This document shows positions 11,750-61,697 of a stretch of 64,000 nucleotides of DNA, in pieces. A program made the position numbers and the translations under genes. The notes below the pieces were generated by a model. It was not told the origin of the DNA. It made no database searches and worked only from the letters and a program-made list of their open reading frames with translations. Position 1 is the stretch's first letter. Each line of letters starts with the position of its first letter. Origin of the DNA: an uncultured virus (IMG/VR IMGVR_UViG_3300028394_000069) (lineage: Duplodnaviria; Heunggongvirae; Uroviricota; Caudoviricetes); IMG/VR virus record IMGVR_UViG_3300028394_000069; one strand, written 5' to 3'.

Positions 11750-12688
11750 CTACTGACGAGGTGTCTTAATATAAGCTACTGTAGTATCATTTAACGAAAA
11801 ATGCTGAAGCTTAGGTTCAGATGCACGTTCAGGACAAATATCAATACCCCCGCGGCGAGTATATAAACACCTTACTACTAACTCTGCAGGCTTAAGTAGA
11901 TTCCAAAGTCTTGTATAGATAGTCTCACAAATCTCTTCATGAAAGTGACATTCATCTCTAAAAGAGATAATATACTTCAACATAGAAGCAGGTTCAATAG
12001 TCTTTGAGCCTTTAATATGAATAAAGACATCACCGAAGTCAGGTTGACTAGTAACACGGCAGTTTGACTTCAACAAAGAACTATGATATAAAGTAATCTC
12101 TTTCTCTGAATCAATAACTTCTAAGAGTTCAGGAGATTCTGAATATTTACTAATTTCAAGTTCATCAAAAGGATAATCATCTTCTAAGGTAATAAACTCT
12201 TCAATAACCGGACTTGTATTATTAAAAGCAAACCACTCTTGATGAGCAGTAGTAGTATCATCAAGAACTTCTCTATTCGAAAATACCTTTACCTTAACAT
12301 CAGTTTCAAGCAATCTAGATAAATCTCGTGTAGCTATTTCTTGAATAGTCTTTCTAACTTCATCACTAGACTCACCTAACTTAGTCATATTAAAAGAGTT
12401 AAAATATAGCTTAAGAGATTTAGACTCAACGATATATTTATTCGTACAAGAGTAAACGATTTTAGCAATACCAGCTACCGGTACACCACTATTAGTTAGA
12501 CCAGATACTTCATAAGCATTCCAAGTATCAGTACCAGTAAAGGGTAGATCATCGTCTTGAATATTCAGATGAGTACGATTAGCCTGTCTCGGTTCACGTA
12601 CGATTAAAGAGGAATCGTAGATAGACTTATAAGATGAAGTCTGACCAAGATGCCGTGAGATATTAGAGTTATCCAATTTTGATGTCAT
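11750..12688 (-). CDS. queF: NADPH-dependent preQ0 reductase QueF (bimodular type)
   Basis: D.W.AYEVS, VESKSLKLYFNSFN, LLKSNCRVTSQPD.G, FHEE..E.I and YTRRGGIDI.P.R motifs. Confidence 0.93.
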   Translation of the reverse strand: MTSKLDNSNISRHLGQTSSYKSIYDSSLIVREPRQANRTHLNIQDDDLPFTGTDTWNAYEVSGLTNSGVPVAGIAKIVYSCTNKYIVESKSLKLYFNSFNMTKLGESSDEVRKTIQEIATRDLSRLLETDVKVKVFSNREVLDDTTTAHQEWFAFNNTSPVIEEFITLEDDYPFDELEISKYSESPELLEVIDSEKEITLYHSSLLKSNCRVTSQPDFGDVFIHIKGSKTIEPASMLKYIISFRDECHFHEEICETIYTRLWNLLKPAELVVRCLYTRRGGIDICPERASEPKLQHFSLNDTTVAYIKTPRQ

Positions 12689-17836: not shown

Positions 17837-18838
17837 CTATGATTCACATGAAGAACAATTCAGAATAGATCGAGCTAACTCTTGAGCAGGATTAGCAGAC
17901 CGCTGATAGTAAAGAGACTTAATACCCATCTCGTGAGCAAATAACATAAGCTCATTTACATCTTTAGCTTTTGTAGAAGGAGGAATCATTAAGTTCAACG
18001 ATTGTCCTTGATCGATATATTTCTGTCTCTGAGCAGCTTGAATGATAATCTCTTTTTGAGTTATCTCACTAAAGGTCTTAAAGACGTTTTTTTCATGCTG
18101 AGTTAAGAACTCAAGATGCTGCACACTACCACCTCTAGATAGAATACTCATCCATACATCAGTAGTATCTTTATCTTTTGATTTGAGTAATTTAGCTAAG
18201 TGTGGAGAGCGGAAAGTAAACTTACCTTTAGCTAAGTCTTTTACAAAGTAATTACTATTTAGAGGTTCAATAGAAGGTGAAACTTGACCTAAAATAAATG
18301 AACTAGACGTCGTTGGAGCTACGGCCATTGTAGTTGTATTACGTCTACCATAGCCCTTTAGCAGAGCGGGTTCTCCAAAGAGAGACGCTAAGCTCTCAGT
18401 AGCTCTATCACATTCAGATCTAATAGTAGAGAAGATCTGAACGTTCTCAAGTTTAGCAGCCATAGATTCAAACTCAATATCTTTACTCTGTAAATACGAA
18501 TGCCAGCCAAGAACTCCTAAACCTAATGCTCGTTGATTGACTGCAAATTTATGAGGAGCTTCCATGAACAAGACATCTTTAGTCTTATTAATAAACTCAG
18601 TCATTACTGCATCGAGGAAGTAGATAAGAGTTTGAACCGCGTCAGTTTCTTTAATCTCATCCCATTTCTCAAGATTAATAGAAGATAAATCACATACAAA
18701 GGATTCATCAGCAGAGTTACTTAGGAAGATTTCACTACAGTTATGAACTAGAATTTTATTAGCGAAAAAATTTGCTACTTTAGATACAGTAATATCATAA
18801 ACCGGCTCTACTTTTTTATATCTCTTTATTTTTATCAT
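17837..18838 (-). CDS. nrdA: NrdA C-terminal half fused to a 33-aa C-intein
   Basis: MIKIK...VYDITV...NFFAN.ILVHN|CSEI, then CDLSSIN, AVAPTTSSS, DQGQSLNL and KSLYY. Confidence 0.93.
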   Translation of the reverse strand: MIKIKRYKKVEPVYDITVSKVANFFANKILVHNCSEIFLSNSADESFVCDLSSINLEKWDEIKETDAVQTLIYFLDAVMTEFINKTKDVLFMEAPHKFAVNQRALGLGVLGWHSYLQSKDIEFESMAAKLENVQIFSTIRSECDRATESLASLFGEPALLKGYGRRNTTTMAVAPTTSSSFILGQVSPSIEPLNSNYFVKDLAKGKFTFRSPHLAKLLKSKDKDTTDVWMSILSRGGSVQHLEFLTQHEKNVFKTFSEITQKEIIIQAAQRQKYIDQGQSLNLMIPPSTKAKDVNELMLFAHEMGIKSLYYQRSANPAQELARSILNCSSCES

Positions 18839-18860
18839 ATAATTTTTTATCTGTTTAGTA

Positions 18861-19676
18861 TTATTTATTTGGTAGTTGTTCTTCAACGGCTGCATAAAAC
18901 CCTCGCTTACCTAAGCCATTGAATCTACACTTAGCGAGACCCTTTAACCACCTAAAATTTCTAAGTTCTGCAAGTTTAATTATACTTGGCCATGTTGGTA
19001 TATATCCAAACTCAATATATAATTCTATACCCCTTTTAATAAAATAATCATCTGTTAATCCAGAGTAATTATTGTTTTTATTACCTGATCCCATTTTGCT
19101 TCTCATTTGTTTTTCTACATTAGATATTTTTCGACCCTTTGTGTGGTGTACCCATTGACCTGAGAGAACATTAGGATGTGTTGTAGGTACAGATCCTATT
19201 ATAGTATTAGTATGAATATCCTTAACAACAATTGTACCTTTCCTTGCTGCTGAAATGCGATTCCTACCTTCTGAAGTCTGCCAGCCTTCTGTTTTTCTTA
19301 AATATGTTGAATGTGATTTTAACCACGCGTAACCCATTCTTATTTTTTTGTTTAAAATAAACTTAAACTTACCTTTTACATTATTACCGTTATTATAACC
19401 ATTCAATGTAAATCTTACTGCGAGCATATCTTCTCGTTTTCTGTATATTTTATACCTTAACATGTGTAAGAAAATATGCTCCTCAGGAAGTACAGCAACG
19501 AGATTGTATAGCTCATCTATACCGCCTAACGATCTAGGAATTATATGATGAACTTCTTGATATATTGCAGTCTTCATTAGTCTCTGATCATTAGGATTGC
19601 GTATAGTTAACCTTTCTCTAGGTGTAGATTTCTGTATATAAGTAATAAAGTTATCGTGTATTTGTTTATAATTCAT
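18861..19676 (-). CDS. HNH homing endonuclease between the nrdA halves
   Basis: EVHHIIPRSLGG.D...NLV....EEH...H motif with a NUMOD-like C-terminus. Confidence 0.88.
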   Translation of the reverse strand: MNYKQIHDNFITYIQKSTPRERLTIRNPNDQRLMKTAIYQEVHHIIPRSLGGIDELYNLVAVLPEEHIFLHMLRYKIYRKREDMLAVRFTLNGYNNGNNVKGKFKFILNKKIRMGYAWLKSHSTYLRKTEGWQTSEGRNRISAARKGTIVVKDIHTNTIIGSVPTTHPNVLSGQWVHHTKGRKISNVEKQMRSKMGSGNKNNNYSGLTDDYFIKRGIELYIEFGYIPTWPSIIKLAELRNFRWLKGLAKCRFNGLGKRGFYAAVEEQLPNK

Positions 19677-19733
19677 AATATATCTGTGCAGAAAACATTA
19701 CTGCACAGATATATTTAGTCTACACGATACATA

Positions 19734-20801
19734 TTATTCAGGAGTAATTACAAGAATATCATCCTCCTTTAATTCCTGAGCTTGCACATACCCTCTATTT
19801 TTTGTATATATCTGATGTTCTGGAGTACATTTAATGATGTTACCCTGCTCATCTTCAATTTCTATAATTTCGGAAGATTCACCTGTTTGAGCAAAAGCTT
19901 CAATAGTTGAGTATACTTCTTGATCTGTTTTAACATCATACGACTTAACTTTTACTTCAGAGTATTTCTTTAAGTAATAATTAAGGCTATCAATTGGCAC
20001 TTCAAGATATTCGTTCTCATTAACTAAAATACTAATAATAGTGTCTCCTGTGACACATAAATTACTCGCGTTGATTTTTAAACCCTTATCTTTATAAACT
20101 TGAGGAGCTTGATTATTAGCATTATCTGTAAAGAAGACATAAGGGTATCCTGTCTCAAAACGCTTTTGAATTACTTTGCCCCATATTTTACGTTTATGCT
20201 TATCACCAGCTTTCATATCAGCTAGCCATTCATCTGTTACACATACTCCAAAGGAAACGTCTTGAATACTATTACCAGCGCTTTTAATCTCTAAGAACTC
20301 TTCAATATCTCCATGATCAACAGGTAGATAAGCAGCAAAGGATCCTCGTCTAACATTACTTTGAGAGACATAACTAATAAGAGAGTTGAATACAGTAAGT
20401 TGATGATGCACTCCCGTAGCACTACCTCCATCACTAATAGGAGCACCTCGCTTACGTACTTCACCAAAATATGCAGAAGTACCACCTCCTACCTTAGACA
20501 TAGTACCTACTTCGCTAACTTTATAGAGAATCTTCTCCATATCGTCAGGAATATAGCTACCAAAACAAGAGATAGGTAAGCCTCTATCTCTACCAAAATT
20601 AGACCAGATAGGAGAAGATAGAGAATAGAACCCATGTGCCATGTAGGTCATAAACTTCAATGCGAAGCCTTCAATATTTAAATATCGTTCAGCAGCATTA
20701 GCTATATCTGAGATTCTTTCTTCAGGAGTCTCACCTACCTTTAGATAACCACGTTCAAGAAATTTACGAGAGTCTGCATTAAGCCATTCATATGATAACA
20801 T
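19734..20801 (-). CDS. nrdA: NrdA N-terminal half fused to a 107-aa N-intein
   Basis: SSPIWSN, PISCF, GGGT and RRGSFAAYL motifs; ASNL|CVTGDT starts the intein at 20057; block B CTPEH. Confidence 0.93.
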   Translation of the reverse strand: MLSYEWLNADSRKFLERGYLKVGETPEERISDIANAAERYLNIEGFALKFMTYMAHGFYSLSSPIWSNFGRDRGLPISCFGSYIPDDMEKILYKVSEVGTMSKVGGGTSAYFGEVRKRGAPISDGGSATGVHHQLTVFNSLISYVSQSNVRRGSFAAYLPVDHGDIEEFLEIKSAGNSIQDVSFGVCVTDEWLADMKAGDKHKRKIWGKVIQKRFETGYPYVFFTDNANNQAPQVYKDKGLKINASNLCVTGDTIISILVNENEYLEVPIDSLNYYLKKYSEVKVKSYDVKTDQEVYSTIEAFAQTGESSEIIEIEDEQGNIIKCTPEHQIYTKNRGYVQAQELKEDDILVITPE

Positions 20802-30400: not shown

Positions 30401-30692
30401 ATCTTTATTATATAGTTAAGTTGGAATAATGCAATTAAAGATATTGTATTTTAATGAGAATAGCTTAAATCTTAATATGAAAGAAAAAGTTTACATAAAG
30501 TCTAGCTTCAAAGAACAGCTCCTAAAGATAGGATGTGGTATTAGAGACTTTATAACTATAACTCGAATAGAGGATAAGAAGATTTTCTTTAGTGCAGGTA
30601 AATGTAAGTTATGTATACCACAAGAAGAACTTGACGATATTAAAATTTAAAAATTATAGAACTGCTTTCTTATGTTTAGATTAAATAATCAT

Positions 30693-33600
30693 ATGAGTTT
30701 TGATAGTATTGTTCGTGAAATATTAAACGAAGGAAAAAAAGAAAGCGAAGCGTTATTAGCTAAGACATTTCCAGATAATAATCAATTACAAACTAATCTA
30801 CTTAATTTAGATCAAACGCCTTCTAAAGGTGATGTGCCAACAATAATAAAGTTTTATAACGAAACTAAGGACCTAAACAAATTAACTACATATTTTAATT
30901 TATACTCTAAATTAAAAGTTAAAAACATACCTATTAAAGCGCCTAATGTATTTAAAACTTTTATAGATTTTACAGAGCATGTTGATGCTGCTGAGACTAA
31001 ACAAAAACTTAAGAATGCGCCTGAAGTAGAGACAATTGAACATGAAAATAGCGCTGATAAGTTAGTTGATACTGATGAACTTACTATTTATAAAGGTGAT
31101 GCACAACATAAATGTGTAAAGTATGGTGACGGATATTCGTTCTGTATATCAAGACGTGCAGGAGGTAATATGTATGACAGCTATAGGATACAAAAAGAGT
31201 CTACATTTTACTTCATATTCTTTAAGAAAATACCTAAGACTAATCCTGATCATATACTTGTATTAGATCATAAAAAAAATGGCTGGGAGTGGACAAATCA
31301 GCTTAATGATACAAAAAAAACTACCTGGAAAGAAGTTGTAGCGAAGTTTCCTGTACTAGCTCAGTATGAAAATTTATTTGTAAATAAGCCGTTAGCAGAT
31401 AAAGAAAAGGCAAACATACAATTTTTAAAAGATTTTAAGCGTGACCCTTATTTAGAAAAGTTTTTAGCTGCTGAAAGAGATTTGCAGTTACTTGTATTAA
31501 AAACCGGTCAGACTATTACAGATGAAATATTCACTTATCTAACAAACGAGAATTTATGGGATTACATAAATGAATACGTTTCAGTTGGTCCTAATCTCAC
31601 TATTCTTCAAGCTGATGCTATTGAAGCTAAAGGTGGATCTATATTAAGGCAGTATTTAAAGTCTAGAGAGATTGCTATACCGCAGTTAGAGCATCATAAT
31701 TTGCAAATTAATAAATTAGACAAAACTATACAATATGTACAACAAAGAATAAAAACGGATTATAAAAAAGCATGGGATATGGTTGCTGCTGGCAAATACA
31801 TGCTAACTGGTTTAATGTTTTTGGACAGATTGCCGGACAATATACCAGAAAGTATAACAGGAGATTTTGATTGCTCTAGTAGTGATCAAATAACGTCTTT
31901 AGAAGGAGCACCAAAAAGTGTTGGCGGATATTTTAATTGTTCTGATAATAAGAATATAACGTCTTTAAAAGGAGCACCAGAAAGTGTTAAAGGGAATTTT
32001 TATTGTTCTAGTACTCAATTAACATCTTTAAAAGGAGCGCCAAAGAGTGTTGGAGGAAATTTTGATTGTTCTCAAAATCAATTAACGTCTTTAGAAGGAG
32101 CACCAGAAATCGTAGGAAGAGATTTTTATTGTTATACTAATCAATTAACGTCTTTAGAAGGATCACCAAAGAGTGTTGAAGGAAATTTTGATTGTTCTAG
32201 AAATCAATTAACGTCTTTAGAAGGAGCACCAAAAAGTGTTGAAGGAAATTTTAATTGTACTTATAATCAATTAACATCTTTAGAAGGAGCACCAGAAATT
32301 GTTAAAAGATATTTTGATTGTGCTTATAATCAATTAACATCTTTAGAAGGAGCACCAAAGAGTGTTGGAGGAAATTTTAATTGTACTTATAATCAATTAA
32401 CTTCTTTAGAAGGAGCACCAAAAAGTGTTGAAGGAGAGTTTAATTGTTATAATAATCAATTAACGTCTTTAGAAGGAGCGTCGGAAAGTGTTGGAGGAGA
32501 TTTTGATTGTTCTAAAAATCAATTAACGTCTTTAGAAGGAGCGCCGCAAAATTTTAGAGGAAGTTTTAATTGTTCTAAAAATCAATTAACGTCTTTAGAA
32601 GGAGCACCGCAACGAGCTGGTACTTTTAATTGTAGTGATAATAAATTAGTATCTTTAGAAGGCATACCTGTCTATATAGCAGCTGATTTTCATTCTTATG
32701 ATAATCCAGTTAAATTTACCAGCAAAGATATAAAAGCAGCTAGGGCAAAAAGTAAGCGTAAGTTAGAAGGTAATACTATATCTAAAGAAAGCTTTAATAA
32801 TGTTGTTCGTGAAATATTAAATGAAGGTAAGAGAGAAAGCGAAGCGTTATTAGCTAAAACATTTCCAGATGATACAGAATTACAAAAAACGTTATTAAAT
32901 CTTGATCAAACCCCTTCTAAAGGTGATGTTCCATCTATTATAAAGTTTTATAACGAAACTAAAGACTTAAATATACTCACTAATTATTTTAATTTATACT
33001 TTAAATTAAAAGCTAAAAACATACCTATTAAAGCGCCTAATGTATTTAAAACTTTTATAGATTTTACAGAGCATGTTGATGCTGCTGAGACTAAACAAAA
33101 ACTTAAGAATGCGCCTGAAGTAGAGACAATTGAACATGAAAATAGCGCTGATAAGTTAGTTGATACTGATGAACTTACTATTTATAAAGGTGATGCACAA
33201 CATAAATGTGTAAAGTATGGTGACGGATATTCGTTCTGTATATCAAGACGTGCAGGAGGTAATATGTATGACAGCTATAGGATACAAAAAGAGTCTACAT
33301 TTTACTTCATATTCTTTAAGAAAATACCTAAGACTAATCCTGATCATATACTTGTATTAGATCATAAAAAAAATGGCTGGGAGTGGACAAATCAGCTTAA
33401 TGATACAAAAAAAACTACCTGGAAAGAAGTTGTAGCGAAGTTTCCTGTACTAGCTCAGTATGAAAATTTATTTGTAAATAAGCCGTTAGCAGATAAAGAA
33501 AAGGCAAACATAAAATTTTTAAGAGATTTTGAACATAAACCTTCTTTAGAAAAGTTTTTAGCTGCTGAAAGAGATTTGCAGTTACTTGTATTAAAAACAG

Positions 33601-35483
33601 GCGAAACTATTACAGATGAAATATTTACCTATTTAACAAACAAAAATTTATGGAATTACATAAATGAATACGTTTCTGTGGGCCCTAATCTTACTCCTCT
33701 TCAAGCTGATGCTATTGAAGCTAAAGGAGGCGCGATACTAAAGCAGTATTTAAAAACAAGAGAGATTGCTATACCACAGCTAGAGCAGCAGAATTTGCAA
33801 ATTAATAAATTAGACAAAACTATACAATATGTACAACAAAGAATAAAAACGGATTATAAAAAAGCATGGGATATGGTTGCGGCTGGTAAATACATGTTAG
33901 ATGAATTTAAATTTTTAGACAGATTGCCAGACAATATACCGGAAAATATAACAGGAGATTTTAGTTGTTTTGATAATAATAATTTAACTTCTTTAAAAGG
34001 GGCACCGAAAAGTGTCGGAAGAGATTTTATGTGTGCTAATAATAATTGTTTAACTTCTTTAGAAGGGGCACCAGAAAGCGTAGGAAGAGATTGCTATTGT
34101 CATGGTAATCAATTAACTTCTTTAAAAGGCGCACCGCGAAATATTAAAGGAAGTTTTAATTGTTATAAGAATCAATTAACTTCCTTAGAAGGAGCACCAG
34201 AAAGTGTTGGCGGAGATTTTTATTGTGTTGCTAATCAATTAACTTCCTTAGAAGGAGCACCGAAAAGTGTCGGAAGAGATTTTAATTGTGATAATAATCA
34301 ATTAACTTCCTTAGAAGGAGCACCAGAAAGTGTTGGCGGAGATTTTTATTGCAATAAAAATCAGTTAATATCTTTAAAAGGAGCACCGAAAAGTGTTAGA
34401 GGACATTTTAATTGTGATAATAATCCAGTTAAATTTACCAGCGAAGATATAAAAGCAGCTAGGGCAGAAAGTAAACGTAAATTAGAAGGTAATACTATAT
34501 CTAAAGAAAGCTTTGATAGTGTTGTACGTGAAATATTAAATGAAGGTAAGAGAGAAAGCGACGCCGTAATAACAGATCAATTTAACGAAGGTATTAAAGA
34601 AGTATTAGCGACGATTTTAGGTATAGGGGCACTAGGCGCTGGATATATATCCGGAGCTAAAACTCTAGAAAGGGAAATAGCGAAAAGACCAGAATCAAAT
34701 GAAGTAAAAATTACAGCGCTCAGGTCCGCGGACAAGCAAATTAATTCACCACAATTTCATCAAGCTGCTAATAAAGTAATTGATAAACTTAAAGTAGATG
34801 AGACTTCCAAAGATACTCTTACAAAAAAAACTGCTGCAGATCCTATTATCAAGGCAAAACCCGAAGGCGATTCAGTTGTTAAGTTAGCTTCAGAGTTCAT
34901 CCTCCCGAGTGAAATTATAGGAGGTGACATCCATAATAAAGCGAACGATAAGTTCATGAAACCTTATCTAGATGATGTAGGAAAGTGGACTATTGGAGTA
35001 GGACATCTTATAGGTAAAGGTACTCTCAAAGATAAGCAAGACTTCGAAAAAGGGAGAAACGCAGCAGGTCTTTCATCGACTTTATCGAGAGAAGAAGCTC
35101 TGGAACTATTTAAGAAAGACGTAAGCACTCGAGTACCTGCAGTTCAAGCCAAGTTCAAAGAGCAATGGCCGAAGATGAGTAATAAGTTAAAAGCAGCTCT
35201 AGTAGATATCAAGTTCCGTGGAGACTTAGACAATCCAAGCGGAGGAGACTTCGGCTGGGTTAAGCTAATTAAAGCAGGTTACTACAAAAAAGCCGCACAG
35301 GCGTATCTCAATCATAAAGAATATAAGGCGAGAATGCAAAAGAAAGGATCGCGTGGTGATGGTGTAGTTCTTCGGATGAATAGAAACTCTAAGATTATTG
35401 CTGCAGAACCAGGAGGTAAATCTACTTCGAAGTCAAAACAATTAGTAGAGGTACCTAATAAGCTTACAAAGGTAAAGGCTTAA
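30693..35483 (+). CDS. Large internally duplicated protein: two (helical domain + 22-aa LRR-like repeat) modules and a C-terminal lysozyme-like domain
   Basis: Repeat period 2094 nt; LTSLEGAP.SVGG.F.C..NQ repeats; C-terminal Y.DD.GKWTIGVGHLI. Confidence 0.8.
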   Translation: MSFDSIVREILNEGKKESEALLAKTFPDNNQLQTNLLNLDQTPSKGDVPTIIKFYNETKDLNKLTTYFNLYSKLKVKNIPIKAPNVFKTFIDFTEHVDAAETKQKLKNAPEVETIEHENSADKLVDTDELTIYKGDAQHKCVKYGDGYSFCISRRAGGNMYDSYRIQKESTFYFIFFKKIPKTNPDHILVLDHKKNGWEWTNQLNDTKKTTWKEVVAKFPVLAQYENLFVNKPLADKEKANIQFLKDFKRDPYLEKFLAAERDLQLLVLKTGQTITDEIFTYLTNENLWDYINEYVSVGPNLTILQADAIEAKGGSILRQYLKSREIAIPQLEHHNLQINKLDKTIQYVQQRIKTDYKKAWDMVAAGKYMLTGLMFLDRLPDNIPESITGDFDCSSSDQITSLEGAPKSVGGYFNCSDNKNITSLKGAPESVKGNFYCSSTQLTSLKGAPKSVGGNFDCSQNQLTSLEGAPEIVGRDFYCYTNQLTSLEGSPKSVEGNFDCSRNQLTSLEGAPKSVEGNFNCTYNQLTSLEGAPEIVKRYFDCAYNQLTSLEGAPKSVGGNFNCTYNQLTSLEGAPKSVEGEFNCYNNQLTSLEGASESVGGDFDCSKNQLTSLEGAPQNFRGSFNCSKNQLTSLEGAPQRAGTFNCSDNKLVSLEGIPVYIAADFHSYDNPVKFTSKDIKAARAKSKRKLEGNTISKESFNNVVREILNEGKRESEALLAKTFPDDTELQKTLLNLDQTPSKGDVPSIIKFYNETKDLNILTNYFNLYFKLKAKNIPIKAPNVFKTFIDFTEHVDAAETKQKLKNAPEVETIEHENSADKLVDTDELTIYKGDAQHKCVKYGDGYSFCISRRAGGNMYDSYRIQKESTFYFIFFKKIPKTNPDHILVLDHKKNGWEWTNQLNDTKKTTWKEVVAKFPVLAQYENLFVNKPLADKEKANIKFLRDFEHKPSLEKFLAAERDLQLLVLKTGETITDEIFTYLTNKNLWNYINEYVSVGPNLTPLQADAIEAKGGAILKQYLKTREIAIPQLEQQNLQINKLDKTIQYVQQRIKTDYKKAWDMVAAGKYMLDEFKFLDRLPDNIPENITGDFSCFDNNNLTSLKGAPKSVGRDFMCANNNCLTSLEGAPESVGRDCYCHGNQLTSLKGAPRNIKGSFNCYKNQLTSLEGAPESVGGDFYCVANQLTSLEGAPKSVGRDFNCDNNQLTSLEGAPESVGGDFYCNKNQLISLKGAPKSVRGHFNCDNNPVKFTSEDIKAARAESKRKLEGNTISKESFDSVVREILNEGKRESDAVITDQFNEGIKEVLATILGIGALGAGYISGAKTLEREIAKRPESNEVKITALRSADKQINSPQFHQAANKVIDKLKVDETSKDTLTKKTAADPIIKAKPEGDSVVKLASEFILPSEIIGGDIHNKANDKFMKPYLDDVGKWTIGVGHLIGKGTLKDKQDFEKGRNAAGLSSTLSREEALELFKKDVSTRVPAVQAKFKEQWPKMSNKLKAALVDIKFRGDLDNPSGGDFGWVKLIKAGYYKKAAQAYLNHKEYKARMQKKGSRGDGVVLRMNRNSKIIAAEPGGKSTSKSKQLVEVPNKLTKVKA

Positions 35484-43438: not shown

Positions 43439-43938
43439 TGTTTTGAGTATTGGTTGGTTATTACCCCATCATTATATCGGAGTTCGTAAAGCTGAGCGGA
43501 AATGGGGTTTGCGGTAATGGGTAATGGGGTTTCTCCTTTTTCTGATTAGGATTGGTTTTCTCCTTTTTCTAATTTTTCTGATTAGGCTCATATTTTCTCC
43601 TAAATCTTTTGTTTCTGCTCAATTCTTTTATTTCTGCTCATTAGTAAGAACTGTATTTTTCAGCAGAAATTCACCACTCTCTTATATTTCTCATATTTCA
43701 ACCGCAAACCCCTTTTTTGTCTCAATATTTTAGTATTTCCTTCAAGAAGGAAACCATTTCCTTATTGCAGCCTTTCTGTCTTCCTCTTGTATTTTACGCT
43801 CGTTGGCGTTCATTTAGAAGAGGTTAAGATACATTAGCGATTTTGCCAAGTTACACGCTAGCCAAATGATAATCCAACAGATCACAATAGCTATCAGGAT
43901 AACTTTATCTAATCCTCCATTACCTTCTGGCTTCATCA

Positions 43939-44193
43939 TCATGATTCATTCTCTTCATCTTGTTCGTCGTTCTTGATTGCTTCGATAAAGGCATTATTGT
44001 ATACATAATCGAACAAGATATCGTAATTGTATACTCGTTCTTCATCGCTATCACTAGCAACAATGTTTAATGCTTTTGCTAGATTTTCGAACATTTCGTC
44101 TTGTTTCTTTTGCATTGCTTGGATATCTTCTCGCACTGCGTCAATTAGAATTTGTTCTTCGTCGGTTACTTCTCGTTTTGTTAGTTCAATCAT
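43939..44193 (-). CDS. Acidic hypothetical protein, paralog of 45824-46069
   Basis: Shared LI...R..IQA.Q.KQD..F..L..ALN...YD.LFDYV.NN...EENES. Confidence 0.75.
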   Translation of the reverse strand: MIELTKREVTDEEQILIDAVREDIQAMQKKQDEMFENLAKALNIVASDSDEERVYNYDILFDYVYNNAFIEAIKNDEQDEENES

Positions 44194-44225
44194 ATTATTA
44201 GGTTGTTATTATTTTGAGGTGATTA

Positions 44226-45827
44226 TTATTTTGAGATCATTTTATTTCGAAAGTAATCTTTTACAGAAGACCCTACAGAAGACCCTACAGAATCCCATAC
44301 AGAATACCTTACAGAAGACCCTACAGAATCCCATACAGAATACCTTACAGAATACCTTACAGAAACCCTTACAGAATACCTTACAGAAACCCATACAGAA
44401 TACCTTACAGAAGACCCTACAGAATCCCATACAGCTTTATAAACGGTAGAGTTGTTCATTGCTTTATTTTATCGGAGTTCATTTGAAAAGTAATCTTTTG
44501 CAGAAGACTCTACAGAACGCCATACAGAAACCACTACAGAAACCCTTACAGAATCCCATACAGAATACCTTACAGAAGACCCTACAGAATCCCATACAGA
44601 ATCCGCTACAGAACTCCTTACAGAATCCCTTACAGTCCTACGAATGATAGTATTATTCATTGCTTTATTTTATCGGAGTTCGTGTTGTAAAGTAATCTCT
44701 TACGGAACTCCGTATAGAATCCTCTACAAAATCCGCTACAGAATCCCCTACAGAATCCCATACAGAATTCCACACAGGAACACTTACAGAAGCCCCTACA
44801 GAACCCTCTATAGAAGCCCATACAGAATCCCATACAGAATCCCATACAGAATCATTAATGTTAAAGTTGGTCATTGCTTTATTTTAGTGGAGTTCGTTTT
44901 GTTGAAGTAATTTTTTGCAGAATCGCTTACAGAATCTACTACAGTAACACTTACAGAACGAGCTACAGAACTCCATGCAGAACCCCTTACAGACCCCCTT
45001 ACAGAATCCTCTACAGAACTCCATACAGAACCCGCTACAGAATCCCTTACAAAATCCTCTACAGAATCCCCTACAGAATCCGCTACAGCCCACCATACAG
45101 AATCATTAATGTTAAAGTTGGTCATTGCTTTATTTTAGTGGAGTTCGTTTTGTTGAAGTAATCTTCTACAGAATCCCTTACGGAACTCCATACAGAATCC
45201 CATACAGAATCCGATACAGAAATCCATACAGAATATCTTACAGAACTCCATACAGAACCCCATACAGCGTCCCATACAGAACCCGCTACAGAATCCCTTA
45301 CAAAATCCTCTATAGAATCCCTTGCAGAATAATATACAGCTTCGCGAATATTAGTGTTGGTCATTGCTTTATTATTCATTTTTATTGGAAGTAATCTCTT
45401 ACAGAATCTTCTACAGAACTTCTTATAGAATCCGTTACAGAACTTCTTACAGAAGACCCTACAGAATCCCATACAGAATTCGCTACAGAGTCCCATACAG
45501 AGTCCCATACAGAAGTTCCTACATAATACCATACGCAATCCTCTACAGAGTCCCATACAGAATCCCATATATAATCCCATACAGAAGTTTTTACAAAGTT
45601 GTCAATTTTATTCATAATTATTTTTGTTTGAAGTAATCTTTTATAGAAGCGAATACAAAAGGCGATATGGAGCCTATTGCAGAAGATCTTACAGAAGCCC
45701 TTACAGAAAATCTTATAGAATCCGCTACAAAAATCCATACAATACCTCTTACAGAATTATATATAGAAACTGTTACAGCACCGTTAATTTTATATAAACT
45801 AGCATTGCCTTCTAGTTTCATTCTCAT
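44226..45827 (-). other. Block 2 of the S-V-x-x repeat microprotein array: 7 ORFs (45827-45618, 45615-45382, 45379-45122, 45125-44871, 44874-44665, 44660-44469, 44459-44226)
   Basis: 12-nt TCTGTA-N6 repeats; each ORF starts with M, mostly N-rich, and carries (D/N)YF near the end; ORFs abut head to tail. Confidence 0.8.
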
Positions 45828-46069
45828 GATTCATTCTCTTCTATTGCTGTTACAACTGGTTCGAAGAAGATATTATTATGCACATAATCGAACAGATAAT
45901 CATAGTCTGGCGCTCGATCGTCTTCAGGTCCTATTTTTAGATTGAGAGCTTGCAAGAGATTATGAAACACCACGTCTTGTTTTTGTTGCAAAGCTTGAAT
46001 AGTATCTCTTGCTTCATGAATTAGTTTATTATCTTCTGTGGTTATTTCTTTGCTTTTTAGTTTAATCAT
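45824..46069 (-). CDS. Hypothetical protein, paralog of 43939-44193
   Basis: Closes block 1 of the array; see paralog. Confidence 0.75.
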   Translation of the reverse strand: MIKLKSKEITTEDNKLIHEARDTIQALQQKQDVVFHNLLQALNLKIGPEDDRAPDYDYLFDYVHNNIFFEPVVTAIEENES

Positions 46070-46104
46070 ATTGTTATTATTTTGAGGTTATTATTATTTT
46101 GAGT

Positions 46105-47073
46105 TCATTTTATTTTATCGGAGTTCGTTTGAAAGTAATCTCTTGCAGAATCCCATGCAGAAACCCTTACAGTATCCGCTACAGAATTCCCTACAGAAAT
46201 CCCTACAGAATCCCATACAGAATATCTTACAGAATTCCATACAGAATCTCCTACAGAACCCCATACAGAATTCTCTACAGAATTCTCTACAGAACTCCAT
46301 ACAGCTTTATGAATGTTAAAATTGGTCATAATCATTTTTGTTTGAAGTAATCTCTTACAGAACCCTTTGTAGAAATACCTACAGAAAGCCATACAGAAGT
46401 CCTTACAGAATTCAATACAGAATTCCATACAGATAATTCTGTAGCATCGTTAATTTTTTTAATATTCATTTTTGTTAAAATAATATTTTACAGCATCTGC
46501 TACAGAAGACCTTACGTTCCACCATACTGCATAAGTATTTTCTTTTGAAGGCGGCCATTTAGAATATTTTACTGTACCAGTTATTCTATGACATACTGTG
46601 TTACCTATAGAGGAATTTACTGTACAATGTACATTTTTCCATACAGCTTCATTTATCCATAGAGCTTCACGAACGGTGTAGTCACTCATTGCTTTATTTT
46701 AGCGAAGTTCGTTTTGCGAAGTAATCTTCTACAGAACGCTCTACAGAATCACATACAGAATATCCTACAGATTCCTTTGCAGAATTCCATACAGAATCCC
46801 ATACAGAATCATCTACAGAATTCCATACAAAATCTTCTACAGAATCTTCTACAGAATATCTTATAGCATCGTTAATTTTATTCATAATTATTTTTGTTTG
46901 AAGTAACCTCTTACAGAGTCATCTACAGGATTTTTTATAATGATACGTTTAAAATTAAAAGAATCATTATACCATAGAGCATAATCTGTCAACATCCATA
47001 TTTTAAATCCTACATTATTCCAAACTCCAAGGTTAGAAGACTTTAAAGATTTTGTCACATTGTCGTTATTCAT
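46105..47073 (-). other. Block 1 of the S-V-x-x repeat microprotein array: 5 ORFs (47073-46888, 46885-46694, 46689-46459, 46469-46332, 46329-46105)
   Basis: Same repeat and YF terminus. The 45-aa ORF 46469-46332 is missing from the ORF track. Confidence 0.8.
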
Positions 47074-47084
47074 TTTATTATAAT

Positions 47085-47121
47085 AAAAAAGCCCTCTGAA
47101 GTTTGATGTCTTCAGAGGGCT
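47085..47121 (-). terminator. Intrinsic terminator
   Basis: agccctctgaag...cttcagagggct with a T-tract on the minus strand. Confidence 0.85.
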
Positions 47122-47134
47122 ACTGTTTCAGATG

Positions 47135-47473
47135 TTAATCTGCTACATTTCGTTTTGCCTGAGCGATGTAGTCATACTCTTGCTGAATTCCAATCATATA
47201 AGTTCCAGGAACAATATCAATCGTAGTATGACGTTCAGCCATCACGCAACTGATATCAGTCGGCACCGTACTATTCATATAACGCTTACCAGTAGTCTTG
47301 GAGTTATAAAAAGTAACTCCAGGCTTATTAGCGATAACGTGATGGTTTCCCGTCACTTCACTATTAGCAACGATAACTGATTTAGTAGTATGAGTCTCAG
47401 CAATAGCGTCTGCAGGCAGGCTTGCGCACTGAGCTACGATACATTCACCGTGAAGGATAATTTTATTTTTCAT
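47135..47473 (-). CDS. Small His-rich beta protein, partner of the DUF6745-like gene
   Basis: HGE, EVTGNHH, H..I...PG.Y...QQEYD...RNVAD motifs. Confidence 0.75.
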   Translation of the reverse strand: MKNKIILHGECIVAQCASLPADAIAETHTTKSVIVANSEVTGNHHVIANKPGVTFYNSKTTGKRYMNSTVPTDISCVMAERHTTIDIVPGTYMIGIQQEYDYIAQAKRNVAD

Positions 47474-47505
47474 ATATTTATTTTTTTTATTTATTTTTAT
47501 TTAAA

Positions 47506-48465
47506 TTAAGCGATACCAACAATTTCATGATCAGTCAAATCAATGTCACCAAGTCGTTCAGCAATTGCTTGCTTAAGATTCTTACACTCAGGAGATACAC
47601 TCTCAACGTGCCAGACGCCAACGGTCTGATTCAACATCTTCAAGTGAGGAGCGTAAGTAATGTTAGGGAAAAGAGCAGCCATATCCCAGAGTTCATACTC
47701 ACTCTTCGTCCACCATTCTTCGTTAGGATAGTTTTCGTAAGAGTCAATCTTCTTACCAAAAGAAAGCATACGCTCTACCCCAAACTTTCGAACAAACTCC
47801 ATCTTATGATCAGCATTATCAAGATCGTTATACTGCTCGAGCGTCAGTTGGTTACTCGGAGTAACTGCAAGCCATTTCGGGACTCGAGTCCCGTTGAGGA
47901 TAAAGATCTCATTCAAGCCATGACCATCGTATGCAATCGCAGGACCGCCATCACAATGGGTAACGTTATCTTCATTAAGATGAATCACAGTAGGCTTCTG
48001 ACTCACGACTACTGCAGTAGGCATCGGATAGATCTGACCGAGCTTATGAGTCGCATGCCAGATGGCATAATTCTCGCTCGCATCTTTAAAGTCAATACCT
48101 ACTTCGTCTTTGAAAAAGTCATAGAAGCTCCAAACGTTTGCATCGAACGAACCATTAAGGTAAGGAGTCGTATAAGTTTCAATTTCCATTTTAAGTCCTT
48201 TGACAAAGTATTCTTCAACTTTCGCAGGAACATCTTTCACTTCAACACCAGCTTTAAGGAAGTGACAAGCAACCCAAGCTTCTACAGGGTTATTGACAAT
48301 AATCACTGGAGTAGTCTCAGTCTTAAGCAGATGAGTCTGCACCTTATGGATGATTTCGACAGTCTCGTCGTAATCAAGGCGATCAGTATTAATACCGATA
48401 TTGAGCCACTTCTTGGTATACTCAGGCATTTTAGCGGTTTGTTCAGGAGTAAGGGATTCGATCAT
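47506..48465 (-). CDS. DUF6745-like protein
   Basis: IESLTPEQ...Y.KKW..IG, W.FYDFF, KP..IH....THC.GGPAI, NG.RVP and NAD...FVRKFG. Family recognised from memory. Confidence 0.7.
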   Translation of the reverse strand: MIESLTPEQTAKMPEYTKKWLNIGINTDRLDYDETVEIIHKVQTHLLKTETTPVIIVNNPVEAWVACHFLKAGVEVKDVPAKVEEYFVKGLKMEIETYTTPYLNGSFDANVWSFYDFFKDEVGIDFKDASENYAIWHATHKLGQIYPMPTAVVVSQKPTVIHLNEDNVTHCDGGPAIAYDGHGLNEIFILNGTRVPKWLAVTPSNQLTLEQYNDLDNADHKMEFVRKFGVERMLSFGKKIDSYENYPNEEWWTKSEYELWDMAALFPNITYAPHLKMLNQTVGVWHVESVSPECKNLKQAIAERLGDIDLTDHEIVGIA

Positions 48466-48541
48466 TTGATTTAGTTTGTTATTAGTTTGTTATTAGTATT
48501 TCTACTGTACGTTAATTATATCTGAGTTCATTATTGATTTT

Positions 48542-49237
48542 TTAGTCGTTATAATAGCCATTAAAATATTCATCACGGAATTTTTCCGACTCATTCACAC
48601 ATTTAATAGCTCTATCTACATACTGTTGTAGTTTAGCTTTATAAAACGCTGTCGCGTTTTTATTAGCATCTTTTGACGTGTAATGAGGTTGTTTACGTAA
48701 TGCATTTGTATACTTTAGCGCTTCTTGTACGGCTACTTCTGCTACTTCTGCTAGATTAGCATTTATACGAGCTACTTCAGCAGCTTTTACAATAGATAGA
48801 TGCATGTCTGTGGGTATGTTAAAAAGCTCGTCATCAGTAATATCAGTAATATCAGTAAGTGAATCATTGTTAAGACTGGCTGTATTTGCTGTAGAATAAA
48901 TCTCATCGAGTTTTTTCTTTAATTCTGCGAGTGCAATTTTATTTTTTGACTGATAGCGATAACCATAATTATTATTAGAATTATCAGGATCATTATAAGA
49001 TTCTAAGATAGTATTAATTTGAGGAACCAAATCTAGGATACTATCGTCATTAATTTGATAATTACAATTAGCGACAGTATCTAAAGTATCACTCAAGGCT
49101 TGAAGCTCGTCATAAGCGCGTAAATTATGAGTATACTCTACATAATTTCTAATTAATGCATCTTCATATACAGCAAGAGCATCATTGCTAAGTTCACGTT
49201 GTTTTGATGTTATGTTGTCGTTGTGTTTATTATTCAT
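48542..49237 (-). CDS. Hypothetical helical protein
   Basis: Long ORF. Confidence 0.6.
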   Translation of the reverse strand: MNNKHNDNITSKQRELSNDALAVYEDALIRNYVEYTHNLRAYDELQALSDTLDTVANCNYQINDDSILDLVPQINTILESYNDPDNSNNNYGYRYQSKNKIALAELKKKLDEIYSTANTASLNNDSLTDITDITDDELFNIPTDMHLSIVKAAEVARINANLAEVAEVAVQEALKYTNALRKQPHYTSKDANKNATAFYKAKLQQYVDRAIKCVNESEKFRDEYFNGYYND

Positions 49238-52071: not shown

Positions 52072-52698
52072 TTAAATTTTGTTGTAGAATTTTTTGCGGA
52101 CGATTTTTGTTAAACCAAATTGCGAAAATTGAGGTACAATATCATGTCGGATCCAATTTCGACGATATGATGTATCTACATTAGTTTCATCCTCTACAAT
52201 ATATTCCTGAAGATTATTATTTTCTGCGTATTCAACCAAATCAGCTTTTGTGGTGCGAATAAATGGTCTAATGATTGCGTACAAATCTAGCTGAGTAATG
52301 ACAGGAATAGGCATATACTCAGGACAACCTCTAAGCATATTCATAACATAACTCTCTACAGCATCATTAATATGATGACAGCAAATAATATTAGCGTTCA
52401 AAGTCTTAAAGAAGTTTAATCTATCAATTCGCAGACTATTTTCAATGCTACCTGTAATAGGCTTATCCTCTCTAATAGCTGATGAATAGTTAGCGTAGTT
52501 ATGATCGCAAAATTGCTTAACTTTAGCCTCCATTAGATCATTTTGCGGTCGAAGATTATGATTATAATGACATACACTTACCTTATCAGGTCCGTACAGA
52601 CGAATTAATAAATGAGCTGCTGCGATGCTATCAATGCCACCTGATACTGCTACCGTAAATTTATCTTTAGGTAAGATGTTTCTCGCAACATTAATCAT
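52072..52698 (-). CDS. tilS: tRNA(Ile)-lysidine synthetase (catalytic domain only)
   Basis: AVSGGIDS, HYNHNLR, HH.ND..E, IIRP and DETN....YRRN.IR motifs. Confidence 0.9.
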   Translation of the reverse strand: MINVARNILPKDKFTVAVSGGIDSIAAAHLLIRLYGPDKVSVCHYNHNLRPQNDLMEAKVKQFCDHNYANYSSAIREDKPITGSIENSLRIDRLNFFKTLNANIICCHHINDAVESYVMNMLRGCPEYMPIPVITQLDLYAIIRPFIRTTKADLVEYAENNNLQEYIVEDETNVDTSYRRNWIRHDIVPQFSQFGLTKIVRKKFYNKI

Positions 52699-60581: not shown

Positions 60582-61697
60582 TTAGATAGTTTTCTTCCAG
60601 ACGCTACTCTCACCGCGCCCAATTTTAACAAGTTTATTTGCATCAACAAGCTCCTTGAGAGTAAGGTAGGCTTGAGAAGGAGTAAGCTTAAATTTTTCAA
60701 TAATCAGATTTTTAGTAATAAGAGGAGGATCAAGCTCAAGAATTTCTTTCTCAATATCTTGCTTACGAGTCTTTTTAGATTTACCCATATCACCTTCACG
60801 TTTACCGGTGAATTGAAATCCGTTATAACCAAGAGTTGCAGAATAATCGTTCGTAGGACCGAACCGATTCTTATAGACTGAGAAGATTCGACCACTACTA
60901 TCTCCCTCTGTATCAGGCATAATTTGAATATTGACATCGACTGAGTGAGGTACCAGCGAGGATCCTTTCAGCTTACCGTCTTTAGTAAGGTGCATGATAA
61001 AGAATACAGCACACTCGTTCTCTTTTGCAGCTTTAATCAAAGCGCTTACAGCATAACGCTCAAGCTCAGCTTGATTGAGCTTATTCTTAGTAGTCAATGC
61101 TTGAAAGGAATCGATGACCAATACATCAAAAATTTTAGTCGCCTCAACCAACTCATCAATATCTTGAATATTAGCGATTTGAATATTTTTCACGTTCAAA
61201 CGGTTGCATGTAAAGGCGATCTGATATTGATTCTCTTCGCCAGAAGCATATCCAGTATTGTAACCGTTATTTGAGAGAGCTTCCATCAACTGCAAGAGGT
61301 AGGAAGTGTTATGATGAATAACACCATTCGGTGTTATATAGACATGAGGTGCATCAATTGATATATCATAAACTTCCGCATTTGTATTAACAGTTTGAAT
61401 TGAAGAAATTTTAGATGAACCATAAATCGTATCAACTGTTTGACAGTCTTTTACAAATTTACACTCACCTTCTTCAAAGACTAAATGCCGAGATGAAACA
61501 TTAAATTCATCTCCGTTTTCAAGCTTAACATTTACAATCTCATGTTCCGTTTTTTTAATATATCCTCTAATAGGTACTACTTCCTTTGTTGGTGTTAAGA
61601 CATAAAGTTGAGTATCTGTAAACTCGATATTATTAATATCATCACCAATGTTAAGGAATTCGAATAGATCTTTAAATGTTACCGTTAATGATTTCAT
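60582..61697 (-). CDS. RadA/Sms-like ATPase C-terminal part fused to a 130-aa C-intein
   Basis: VSSRH, VYDISI...Y.TPNGVIHHN|TS, then YASGEE, VIDSFQ, H.TKDG...G....HSVD and KNRFG. Confidence 0.9.
   Translation of the reverse strand: MKSLTVTFKDLFEFLNIGDDINNIEFTDTQLYVLTPTKEVVPIRGYIKKTEHEIVNVKLENGDEFNVSSRHLVFEEGECKFVKDCQTVDTIYGSSKISSIQTVNTNAEVYDISIDAPHVYITPNGVIHHNTSYLLQLMEALSNNGYNTGYASGEENQYQIAFTCNRLNVKNIQIANIQDIDELVEATKIFDVLVIDSFQALTTKNKLNQAELERYAVSALIKAAKENECAVFFIMHLTKDGKLKGSSLVPHSVDVNIQIMPDTEGDSSGRIFSVYKNRFGPTNDYSATLGYNGFQFTGKREGDMGKSKKTRKQDIEKEILELDPPLITKNLIIEKFKLTPSQAYLTLKELVDANKLVKIGRGESSVWKKTI

Follow-up and report, generated by a model that had tools for sequence, protein, structure and literature searches.

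What part could a dozen hypervariable mini-proteins play in a phage that encodes them side by side, next to a gene for a DUF6745-like protein? The question is raised by a 64,000-nt stretch of DNA from an uncultured virus (IMG/VR record IMGVR_UViG_3300028394_000069; the whole stretch is called the window below). Its minus strand carries a DUF6745-like gene (encoding what we call the core), a small His-motif gene (encoding the partner) and, downstream, twelve mini-genes (m1–m12) built on a 12-nt unit that encodes the tetrad S-V-x-x, the variable third and fourth positions being referred to as x3 and x4. A first-pass annotation of this region, made from the letters alone, had proposed that the variable tract contained in many DUF6745 proteins has here been externalized into a recombining library of separate subunits, which might serve as decoys, inhibitors or specificity adaptors in a phage–host conflict. 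On balance, we favor a reading of this kind: the locus would be a split form of a phage DUF6745 module, whose variable tract is made as separate, docking mini-proteins.

The mini-gene array and its variation

All twelve genes were present where the first-pass annotation had placed them: they run head-to-tail on the minus strand (44226–47073), encode proteins of 45–85 aa and form two blocks, within which neighboring genes lie −11 to +9 nt apart, four junctions being ATGA overlaps (Table 1). Counted back from the terminal Y-F, a single unbroken period-4 register extends through each of the twelve proteins, and the S-V frame has no internal stop in any of the twelve genes, as against totals of 10 to 119 stops in the other five frames. 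Of the 186 tetrads, 117 have S at position 1, and 122 have V (20 have I) at position 2; W (40) and R (37) predominate at position 3, and D (62) at position 4. The (D)YF end that had been noticed is likewise conserved: Y-F occurs in all twelve proteins and is preceded by D in nine of them and by N, G and Y in one each. The three members described as strongly diverged are m1, m3 and m6. A profile that combined ten members from the window (m1 and m3 being left out) with twenty from relatives found no further copy elsewhere in the 64-kb window. The best-conserved part of the family is the C-terminal end; diverged relatives keep the same frame, leader and DYF tail, and no other frame stays open in them. 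As judged from these sequence features, the mini-genes are almost certainly real and members of one family. Note that one mini-gene of a close relative (L005, 12515–13011) is seemingly interrupted, with an out-of-frame N-terminal piece followed by an unrelated 93-aa open reading frame (ORF) and then by a 41-aa piece with a DYFQIK tail.

The repeats are highly ordered at the DNA level. Tandem Repeats Finder detected 12-nt arrays of at most 14.4 copies, together with a gene-level repeat of 251 nt (44737–45330). In the 96 pure S-V units, bases 1–6 read TCTGTA, with T at base 3 in 94 units (TCT), A at base 6 in all 96 (GTA) and T at base 12 in 90: synonymous sites are frozen, and nearly all of the variation falls in bases 7–11. 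The commonest x3 codons are TGG (29), AGG (14), GGG (11), AGA (9) and GAG (7). The contrast drawn in the first-pass annotation, between a fixed S-V and a varying x-x and repeat number, thus stands, the number of tetrads ranging from 8 to 18 per mini-protein. Such a unit pattern fits turnover of the units along with selection that favors diverse residues at x3 and x4.

Comparison of related sequences pointed in the same direction. Two phages that are 99.6% identical over 20,957 nt diverge within the array, where 12 nt and, separately, 36 nt have been deleted and 15 substitutions fall in a patch of 50 nt. In two proteins in which the tract is fused to DUF6745 (see below), the flanks are nearly the same (5 differences), but the tracts are set apart by indels (4, 16, 4 and 4 aa) and by many changes at x positions. 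Contigs from a 2023 freshwater run covered the core–partner pair with 56 differences and contained pieces of the array joined in another order, skipping 558–2369 nt; these rearranged joints, which lie in repeats and were recovered at 90% likeness, may be artefacts. The unit-number variation and the local, conversion-like patches fit the idea of a recombining library.

Phages are known to diversify a surface at defined positions on a fixed scaffold by means of diversity-generating retroelements, the hallmarks of which are a reverse transcriptase, a template repeat and adenine-specific variation. The array is organized differently: no reverse transcriptase was found among the 16 window ORFs of at least 280 aa, the variation in bases 7–11 is not adenine-specific, and diversity is kept as many germline gene copies instead of one variable repeat.

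Internal tracts and free arrays across phages

The array follows a DUF6745-like gene and a small His-motif gene, as had been reported. A profile search with the core, one of the checks suggested in the first-pass annotation, fell just short of the gathering cut-off for PF20530 (DUF6745), with 26.4 bits against 27 over residues 131–235, but pairwise homology to members of the family was clear. Indeed, the core is homologous to gp174 of the cultured Microcystis phage Ma-LMM01 (AB231700; E = 3e-9, 25% identity), which itself scores 54.4 bits with PF20530; many of its close homologues bear PF20530 in precomputed annotation, and the nearest Atlas clusters are 81–95% PF20530. A total of 202 homologues were found, which, among the matches listed (120), have 283–354 aa, are 47–95% identical to the core and lie on contigs of up to 259 kb; no homologue longer than 560 aa was found. 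The AlphaFold2 (AF2) model of the core has a mean predicted local distance difference test (pLDDT) score of 92.1, with a dip at residues 100–110.

The partner gene occurs on the same strand as the core gene in 62 of 67 related loci, as it does in the window, and its AF2 model is all-beta (pLDDT 93.5). Sixteen residues of the partner are invariant, including H8, E10, E39, H45, C76, H82, E99, D101 and D112, as against a single invariant residue (H170) in 33 diverse DUF6745 proteins; should one of the two proteins be an enzyme, the better candidate would be the partner. Besides DUF6745, no Pfam, NCBIfam or PADLOC family was found for the core or the partner (with PADLOC, where m7 and the two acidic proteins of the locus were also included, no family matched at E ≤ 0.01), and PHROGs gave only a weak match for the partner (phrog_27831, E = 1.9e-4). 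Foldseek found no match in the PDB at E ≤ 0.001 (best 0.32 for the partner and 0.95 for the core), and comparison of the core, the partner and the mini-proteins with PDB sequence profiles returned no hit with an E-value below 0.03. The best hits of VIA-align wide (Z 4.1 for each protein), namely the Mis18 yippee domain 7sfz_B for the partner (root-mean-square deviation 3.6, 56 aligned residues) and a clathrin terminal domain or TetR for the core, were too weak to name a fold.

According to the first-pass annotation, many DUF6745 proteins contain an SV/QV-type tract before a W..FYD(Y/F)F motif, a premise that the searches bore out. When m7 was compared with longer proteins, 34 of 97 matches carried PF20530. 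The mini-protein profile matched 2976 cluster representatives at E ≤ 1e-3, and the top 90 matches that were scanned included 49 with PF20530 and 3 with DUF7666. In the fused DUF6745 proteins, the tract (S-V-x-x, or Q-V, N-I and similar types) follows an N-terminal domain of ~80 aa and precedes Y-G-x-H-D-x-x-W-L-x-F-Y-D-Y-F, the motif with which the Pfam domain begins; in P0124, for instance, it spans residues ~90–228, with PF20530 starting at 230. Fused proteins such as P0124, P0128 and those of the IMG/VR loci L072/L073 resemble the window core in having the N-terminal domain, the DUF6745 domain with its W..FYDYF motif and an adjacent partner gene; their tracts show the same period-4 pattern, in which W, R, G and D abound and the number of units varies. 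Their tract is, however, one covalent insert, whereas the window has a core devoid of tract and twelve stand-alone genes.

The claim that the present copy has lost the tract was upheld as well. Residues 113–318 of the core align to residues 296–499 of the 500-aa fused protein P0123 (33% identity, E = 2e-37), and the aligned part is preceded by 112 residues in the core versus 295 in P0123, so that ~183 residues are missing; no period-4 tract was found anywhere in the 319-aa core. The insertion point of the tract coincides with the dip in AF2 confidence at residues 100–110. For their part, the twelve mini-proteins have both the period-4 pattern [polar]-[V/I/L]-x-x and profile similarity to PF20530 tracts. 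They are thus very probably homologous to the internal DUF6745 tract, with low complexity leaving some room for convergence. The idea of the tract being a sensor fused to proteases or nucleases was examined and dropped: the repeats of the proteins concerned (P0240, P0260 and P0291) are 8-mers or acidic or alanine-rich runs.

The tract is also found outside the DUF6745 family. In DUF7666 (PF24703) proteins, an aromatic cap, W-A-Y..F-F, comes after the same S-V-x-x tract, and the flanking domains differ; no link was found between DUF7666 proteins and the window genes. Six proteins (P0130, P0132, P0136, P0201, P0202 and P0243) illustrate this architecture, which consists of a DUF7666 N-terminal domain, the tract and a conserved C-terminal domain after the cap, P0243 (142 aa) having the tract and the C-terminal domain only.

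We then turn to the distribution of free arrays. A profile scan of viral contigs yielded 67 DUF6745 loci with 10-kb flanks; lineages were defined by merging cores at ≥95% identity, and an array as at least two period-4 mini-genes on the same strand. Of the 36 repeat-less lineages, 26 had an array, as against none of the 12 tract-bearing ones (Fisher p = 9e-6, a value that is only indicative because the lineages are related): arrays and internal tracts are mutually exclusive, and the predicted co-occurrence of repeat-less homologues with free arrays was recovered in most, yet not all, lineages. Within 6 kb on each side of 45 loci, the recurrent genes were the partner (39) and the mini-protein family (26), the next gene occurring 6 times only. 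The module is thus self-contained, with only the partner and the mini-proteins recurring by the core. In a complete 173-kb relative, all 34 mini-gene copies lie in one cluster at 14.9–22.5 kb of the record; the DUF6745 gene being placed at ~23.0–24.0 kb from the locus range, this cluster adjoins the pair. A reverse search for the DNA pattern (four TCTGTA units) gave 113 stretches, and 80 loci were fetched, most of which were other frames or unrelated low-complexity sequence; true SV arrays were present on seven contigs, five with the DUF6745 pair and two running off the contig end.

Relatives whose cores are 90–94% identical to this one have far larger and very different arrays. The tetrad changes with the lineage (S-V, Q-V, N-V, E/K-V or Q-L), as does the tail (DYFKQK here; EYNYDY, KEYEY, NELTK or KINETIT elsewhere). 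Position 1 thus varies while position 2 stays V/I/L, which fits a packing role of the fixed positions and argues against Ser-specific chemistry.

Other small tandem genes were seen near some DUF6745 pairs. In L027/L057 (8660–9948 and 12087–14462), small paralogous genes with leucine-rich-repeat-like units (FDCS.N.LTSLKG) lie beside an array-less repeat-less pair, and in L035/L036 (17565–20580), the pair is followed after ~7 kb by a tandem family of ~10 genes for small proteins rich in Gly and Asp (G-x-G-D-G repeats). As regards Ma-LMM01, gp174 also has no tetrad tract, the gene order of gp174/gp175 is reversed relative to the window and no tetrad mini-gene array lies beside them. This phage encodes seven tandem small paralogues, gp151–157 (L010, 97–1398; 54–80 aa), with a MKIIN-type leader and acidic D-Y-F-like tails, 13 kb from gp174/gp175; they were rejected as mini-proteins, being devoid of the period-4 pattern and of any profile match (best E = 0.23).

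Predicted docking and competing explanations

Do the mini-proteins bind the repeat-less core? The core and m7 were co-folded from a core alignment and a mini-protein alignment, both self-made, in three runs and with three controls. The interaction prediction score from aligned errors (ipSAE) was 0.78 (median of 0.78, 0.85 and 0.62), versus 0.01 for the best control; the mark used is reached by 116 of 157 solved complexes and by 2 of 215 mismatched pairs, a calibration that holds only roughly here because the alignments were self-made. The runs shared at least 26% of contacts, and the partner chain of the co-fold had a pLDDT of at least 77. There is no related solved structure, and the pass therefore does not reflect a complex memorized by the folding model.

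In the model, m7 docks at the site of tract insertion: the interface on the core comprises residues 13–25, 60–71 and 95–118, which flank the site on either side. On m7, V56, V60, V64, V68, V72 and Y75 make the closest contacts, and the most confident ones match the conserved C-terminal end of the family. As counted from the listed residues, the core is touched by 17/17 residues at the V position, 14/17 at position 1, 14/16 at x3 and 6/16 at x4; the fixed positions would thus look like a docking face and x4 like an exposed face. The mini-proteins are accordingly predicted to bind the repeat-less core in trans, which we regard as fairly probable.

These results can be assembled into the following scheme. 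The fused form, present in many relatives, consists of one protein, made of an N-terminal helical domain, a hypervariable [polar]-[V/I/L]-x-x tract and the DUF6745 domain, with the His-motif partner gene adjacent. In the split form proposed here, the core has lost the tract, which is encoded instead as twelve mini-proteins, each composed of a short leader, 8–18 tetrads and an S-V-R-D-Y-F type end. Each mini-protein would dock via a hydrophobic stripe that is invariant and via the conserved tetrads at its C-terminal end into the groove between the two domains of the core, where fused relatives insert their tract, leaving x positions, mainly x4, exposed. One core–partner pair could in this way take twelve alternative variable surfaces, and up to 34 in relatives. 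The array changes by gain or loss of 12-nt units, gene duplication and patchy conversion, amino-acid change being confined to the x positions.

The variable surfaces would most plausibly set what the core–partner pair recognizes, in a phage–host or phage–phage conflict. That the mini-proteins act as swappable specificity elements in such a conflict is a tentative proposal, and we put forward as more speculative still the notion of a virus-encoded germline recognition repertoire, in which an invariant core and a putative enzyme partner would take from a dozen to several dozen plug-in helices, with paratope-like exposed positions rich in W, R, Y, G, D and N, renewed by slippage of 12-nt units and gene shuffling. 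If true, the latter would be a source of phage binding diversity distinct from tail-fibre cassettes as well as from diversity-generating retroelements. Provided that the docking is real, a hypervariable protein segment has been moved into a tandem mini-gene library and re-attaches non-covalently, a new gene architecture that would provide one conserved machine with many interchangeable surfaces. The parent family is very large (the 2976 representatives mentioned above) yet unpublished in the literature searched, where there was no mention of DUF6745, PF20530, phrog_31813, DUF7666 or PF24703 and nothing on hypervariable phage tetrapeptide repeats. By separating the variable part, which is easy to express, swap and pull down, the split form makes the function of the family directly testable, and the scaffold might serve as a natural plug-in binder.

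Several observations weigh against the split-form explanation. The docking is a matter of model confidence, obtained from self-made alignments and with runs spread from 0.62 to 0.85, and the predicted core interface shows no enrichment in conserved residues (15/70 versus 62/249, p = 0.64). The co-occurrence counts are phylogenetically non-independent, and 10 of the 36 repeat-less lineages have no array inside 10 kb. Moreover, the mini-protein profile had no match in four whole repeat-less records without an array, one of them a complete 230-kb genome, whereas in positive controls of the same search it found the arrays of 5/5 records, representing four tetrad types including Q-V, N-V and E/K-V; the core can therefore exist without mini-proteins and the partnership is not obligatory. 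The strong terminator-like hairpin between the pair and the array, the sole such site in 43700–48700, means that they may not be co-expressed. One metatranscriptome run contained three short contigs (43900–43967, 45200–45252 and 47169–47349, at 90–97% likeness), which we do not count as evidence of expression because of possible DNA carry-over. Finally, neither the core nor the partner has a fold or family match that hints at the role of the complex. The externalization put forward in the first-pass annotation is thus supported in part: the missing tract, the distribution of arrays, the predicted docking and the unit variation speak for it, but the core is not strictly in need of an array.

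Some of these points would suit mini-proteins that descend from the DUF6745 tract and now act alone, as self-associating helical proteins, sponges or host-factor mimics, their adjacency to the pair reflecting common origin only. The hairpin, the repeat-less cores without arrays and the ordinary conservation of the interface would all be accounted for, and the occurrence of the tract between DUF7666 and another C-terminal domain marks it as a portable module. We nevertheless consider independent action unlikely, given that the co-fold passes with clean controls and with contacts on the invariant V stripe, that no array lies beside any of the 12 tract-bearing cores and that the 34 copies of the complete relative form one cluster adjoining the pair. 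Much further from the data is the view of the array as non-coding repeat DNA or as the remains of a fused gene that has decayed: over the 12-nt repeats, several frames are open in part (one opposite-strand frame has 10 stops, for example), but an S-V frame open in 12/12 genes, the regular starts, stops and overlaps, the leader and tail kept in diverged relatives that have no other open frame and the recurrence of the family in 26 lineages make it hardly credible.

Two further explanations assign the mini-proteins a target or an enzyme, and both strike us as improbable. The tandem small genes with conserved ends and a hypervariable middle are reminiscent of precursor peptides, such that the core would recognize the conserved ends and the His-motif partner would modify the repeat; split versus fused borosin pathways and multi-precursor lanthipeptide (prochlorosin) loci indeed show that a module fused elsewhere can be laid out as many small genes with conserved ends and variable middles. 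The predicted binding of mini-protein to core would suit such a substrate role, as would the 16 invariant residues of the partner, rich in H, E, D and C, compared to the single H170 of diverse cores. By contrast with borosin and prochlorosin loci, however, the usual neighbors of precursors of ribosomally synthesized and post-translationally modified peptides are missing: none of the recurrent genes nearby encodes a protease, an exporter or a known modifying enzyme, and no family match was obtained, although the partner may have an enzyme activity of a novel kind. The window repeat has a periodic, structural character, the residue at position 1 (S, Q, N or E/K) depends on the lineage, which leaves no shared reactive residue, and the tract of fused proteins is internal, between two folded domains. 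Alternatively, the mini-proteins could be antagonists competing with the cis tract of fused DUF6745 proteins from resident prophages or rival phages. A hypervariable tract surface is what a conflict would lead one to expect, and the presence of fused DUF6745 on very long, probably bacterial contigs (1.5 and 4.1 Mb) would fit prophages, but antagonism leaves unexplained why the phage has its own repeat-less core and partner beside the array, and why tetrad types and tails are matched to the lineage.

Features of the locus and its phage

The positions of all features are given in Table 1. Two acidic proteins encoded within the array region, ac1 and ac2, are not SV proteins; they share the motif LFDY(I/V)xN, and in L012/L013 (18440), L016 (18430), L046, L065 and L080 relatives of theirs occupy the distal end of the arrays. 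They may constitute a fourth component of the module. Their motif resembles the FYDFF helix of the core.

Table 1. Positions of the genes and of the hairpin in the window
Feature	Positions	Strand	Description
DUF6745 core	47506-48465	-	319 aa; repeat-less; PF20530 E = 5.1e-6
His-motif partner	47135-47473	-	112 aa; homologous to Ma-LMM01 gp175 (E = 5e-8)
Terminator-like hairpin	47090-47121	-	12-bp stem with 7 GC pairs, T run; between partner gene and m1
m1	46888-47073	-	61 aa; diverged; ends SVRG-YFKQK; profile E = 3.6e-6 though left out of the profile
m2	46694-46885	-	63 aa; ORF, register, profile
m3	46459-46689	-	76 aa; diverged; profile E = 5.5e-9 though left out; register kept to Y-F
m4	46332-46469	-	45 aa; 11-nt overlap with m3; ORF, register, profile
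m5	46105-46335	-	76 aa; ATGA overlap with m4; alternative start 46329; ORF, register, profile
ac1	45824-46069	-	81 aa; acidic; LFDYV motif; splits array into two blocks; paralogue of ac2
m6	45618-45827	-	69 aa; diverged; ORF, register, profile
m7	45382-45615	-	77 aa; 18 tetrads; query for searches and co-fold
m8	45122-45379	-	85 aa; ORF, register, profile
m9	44871-45125	-	84 aa; part of the 251-nt gene-level repeat
m10	44665-44874	-	69 aa; ORF, register, profile
m11	44469-44660	-	63 aa; ORF, register, profile
m12	44226-44459	-	77 aa; ORF, register, profile
ac2	43939-44193	-	84 aa; acidic; LFDYV motif; closes array

The window is part of the genome of a T4-like myovirus from fresh water (GC content 34.6%), and the metagenome runs that contain the region are freshwater ones. 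It encodes a Gp23 capsid protein only ~33% identical to cyanophage capsids, an S77 prohead protease, a ribonucleotide reductase with intein pieces and QueF; the array region sits within a long series of small minus-strand genes. A second sequence (G001) is the same phage, being 99.99% identical over 30,611 nt, and provides no independent data. No match was found in the phage GenBank collection with the region (blastn) or with the core (tblastn).

Elsewhere in the window, a 1603-aa protein with a phage-lysozyme domain at its C-terminus is encoded at 30672–35483 by a gene that has extensive internal DNA repeats, recognized as self-matches at ~31296–32845 and 33938–34435. The large subunit of ribonucleotide reductase is split over two ORFs (17837–20801), each with intein-splicing pieces, and a helicase-like AAA_25 protein with an intein piece is encoded at 60582–61697. 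The genes for a QueF-like nitrile reductase and a PP-loop ATPase (11750–12688 and 52072–52698) may serve 7-deazaguanine modification of the phage DNA.

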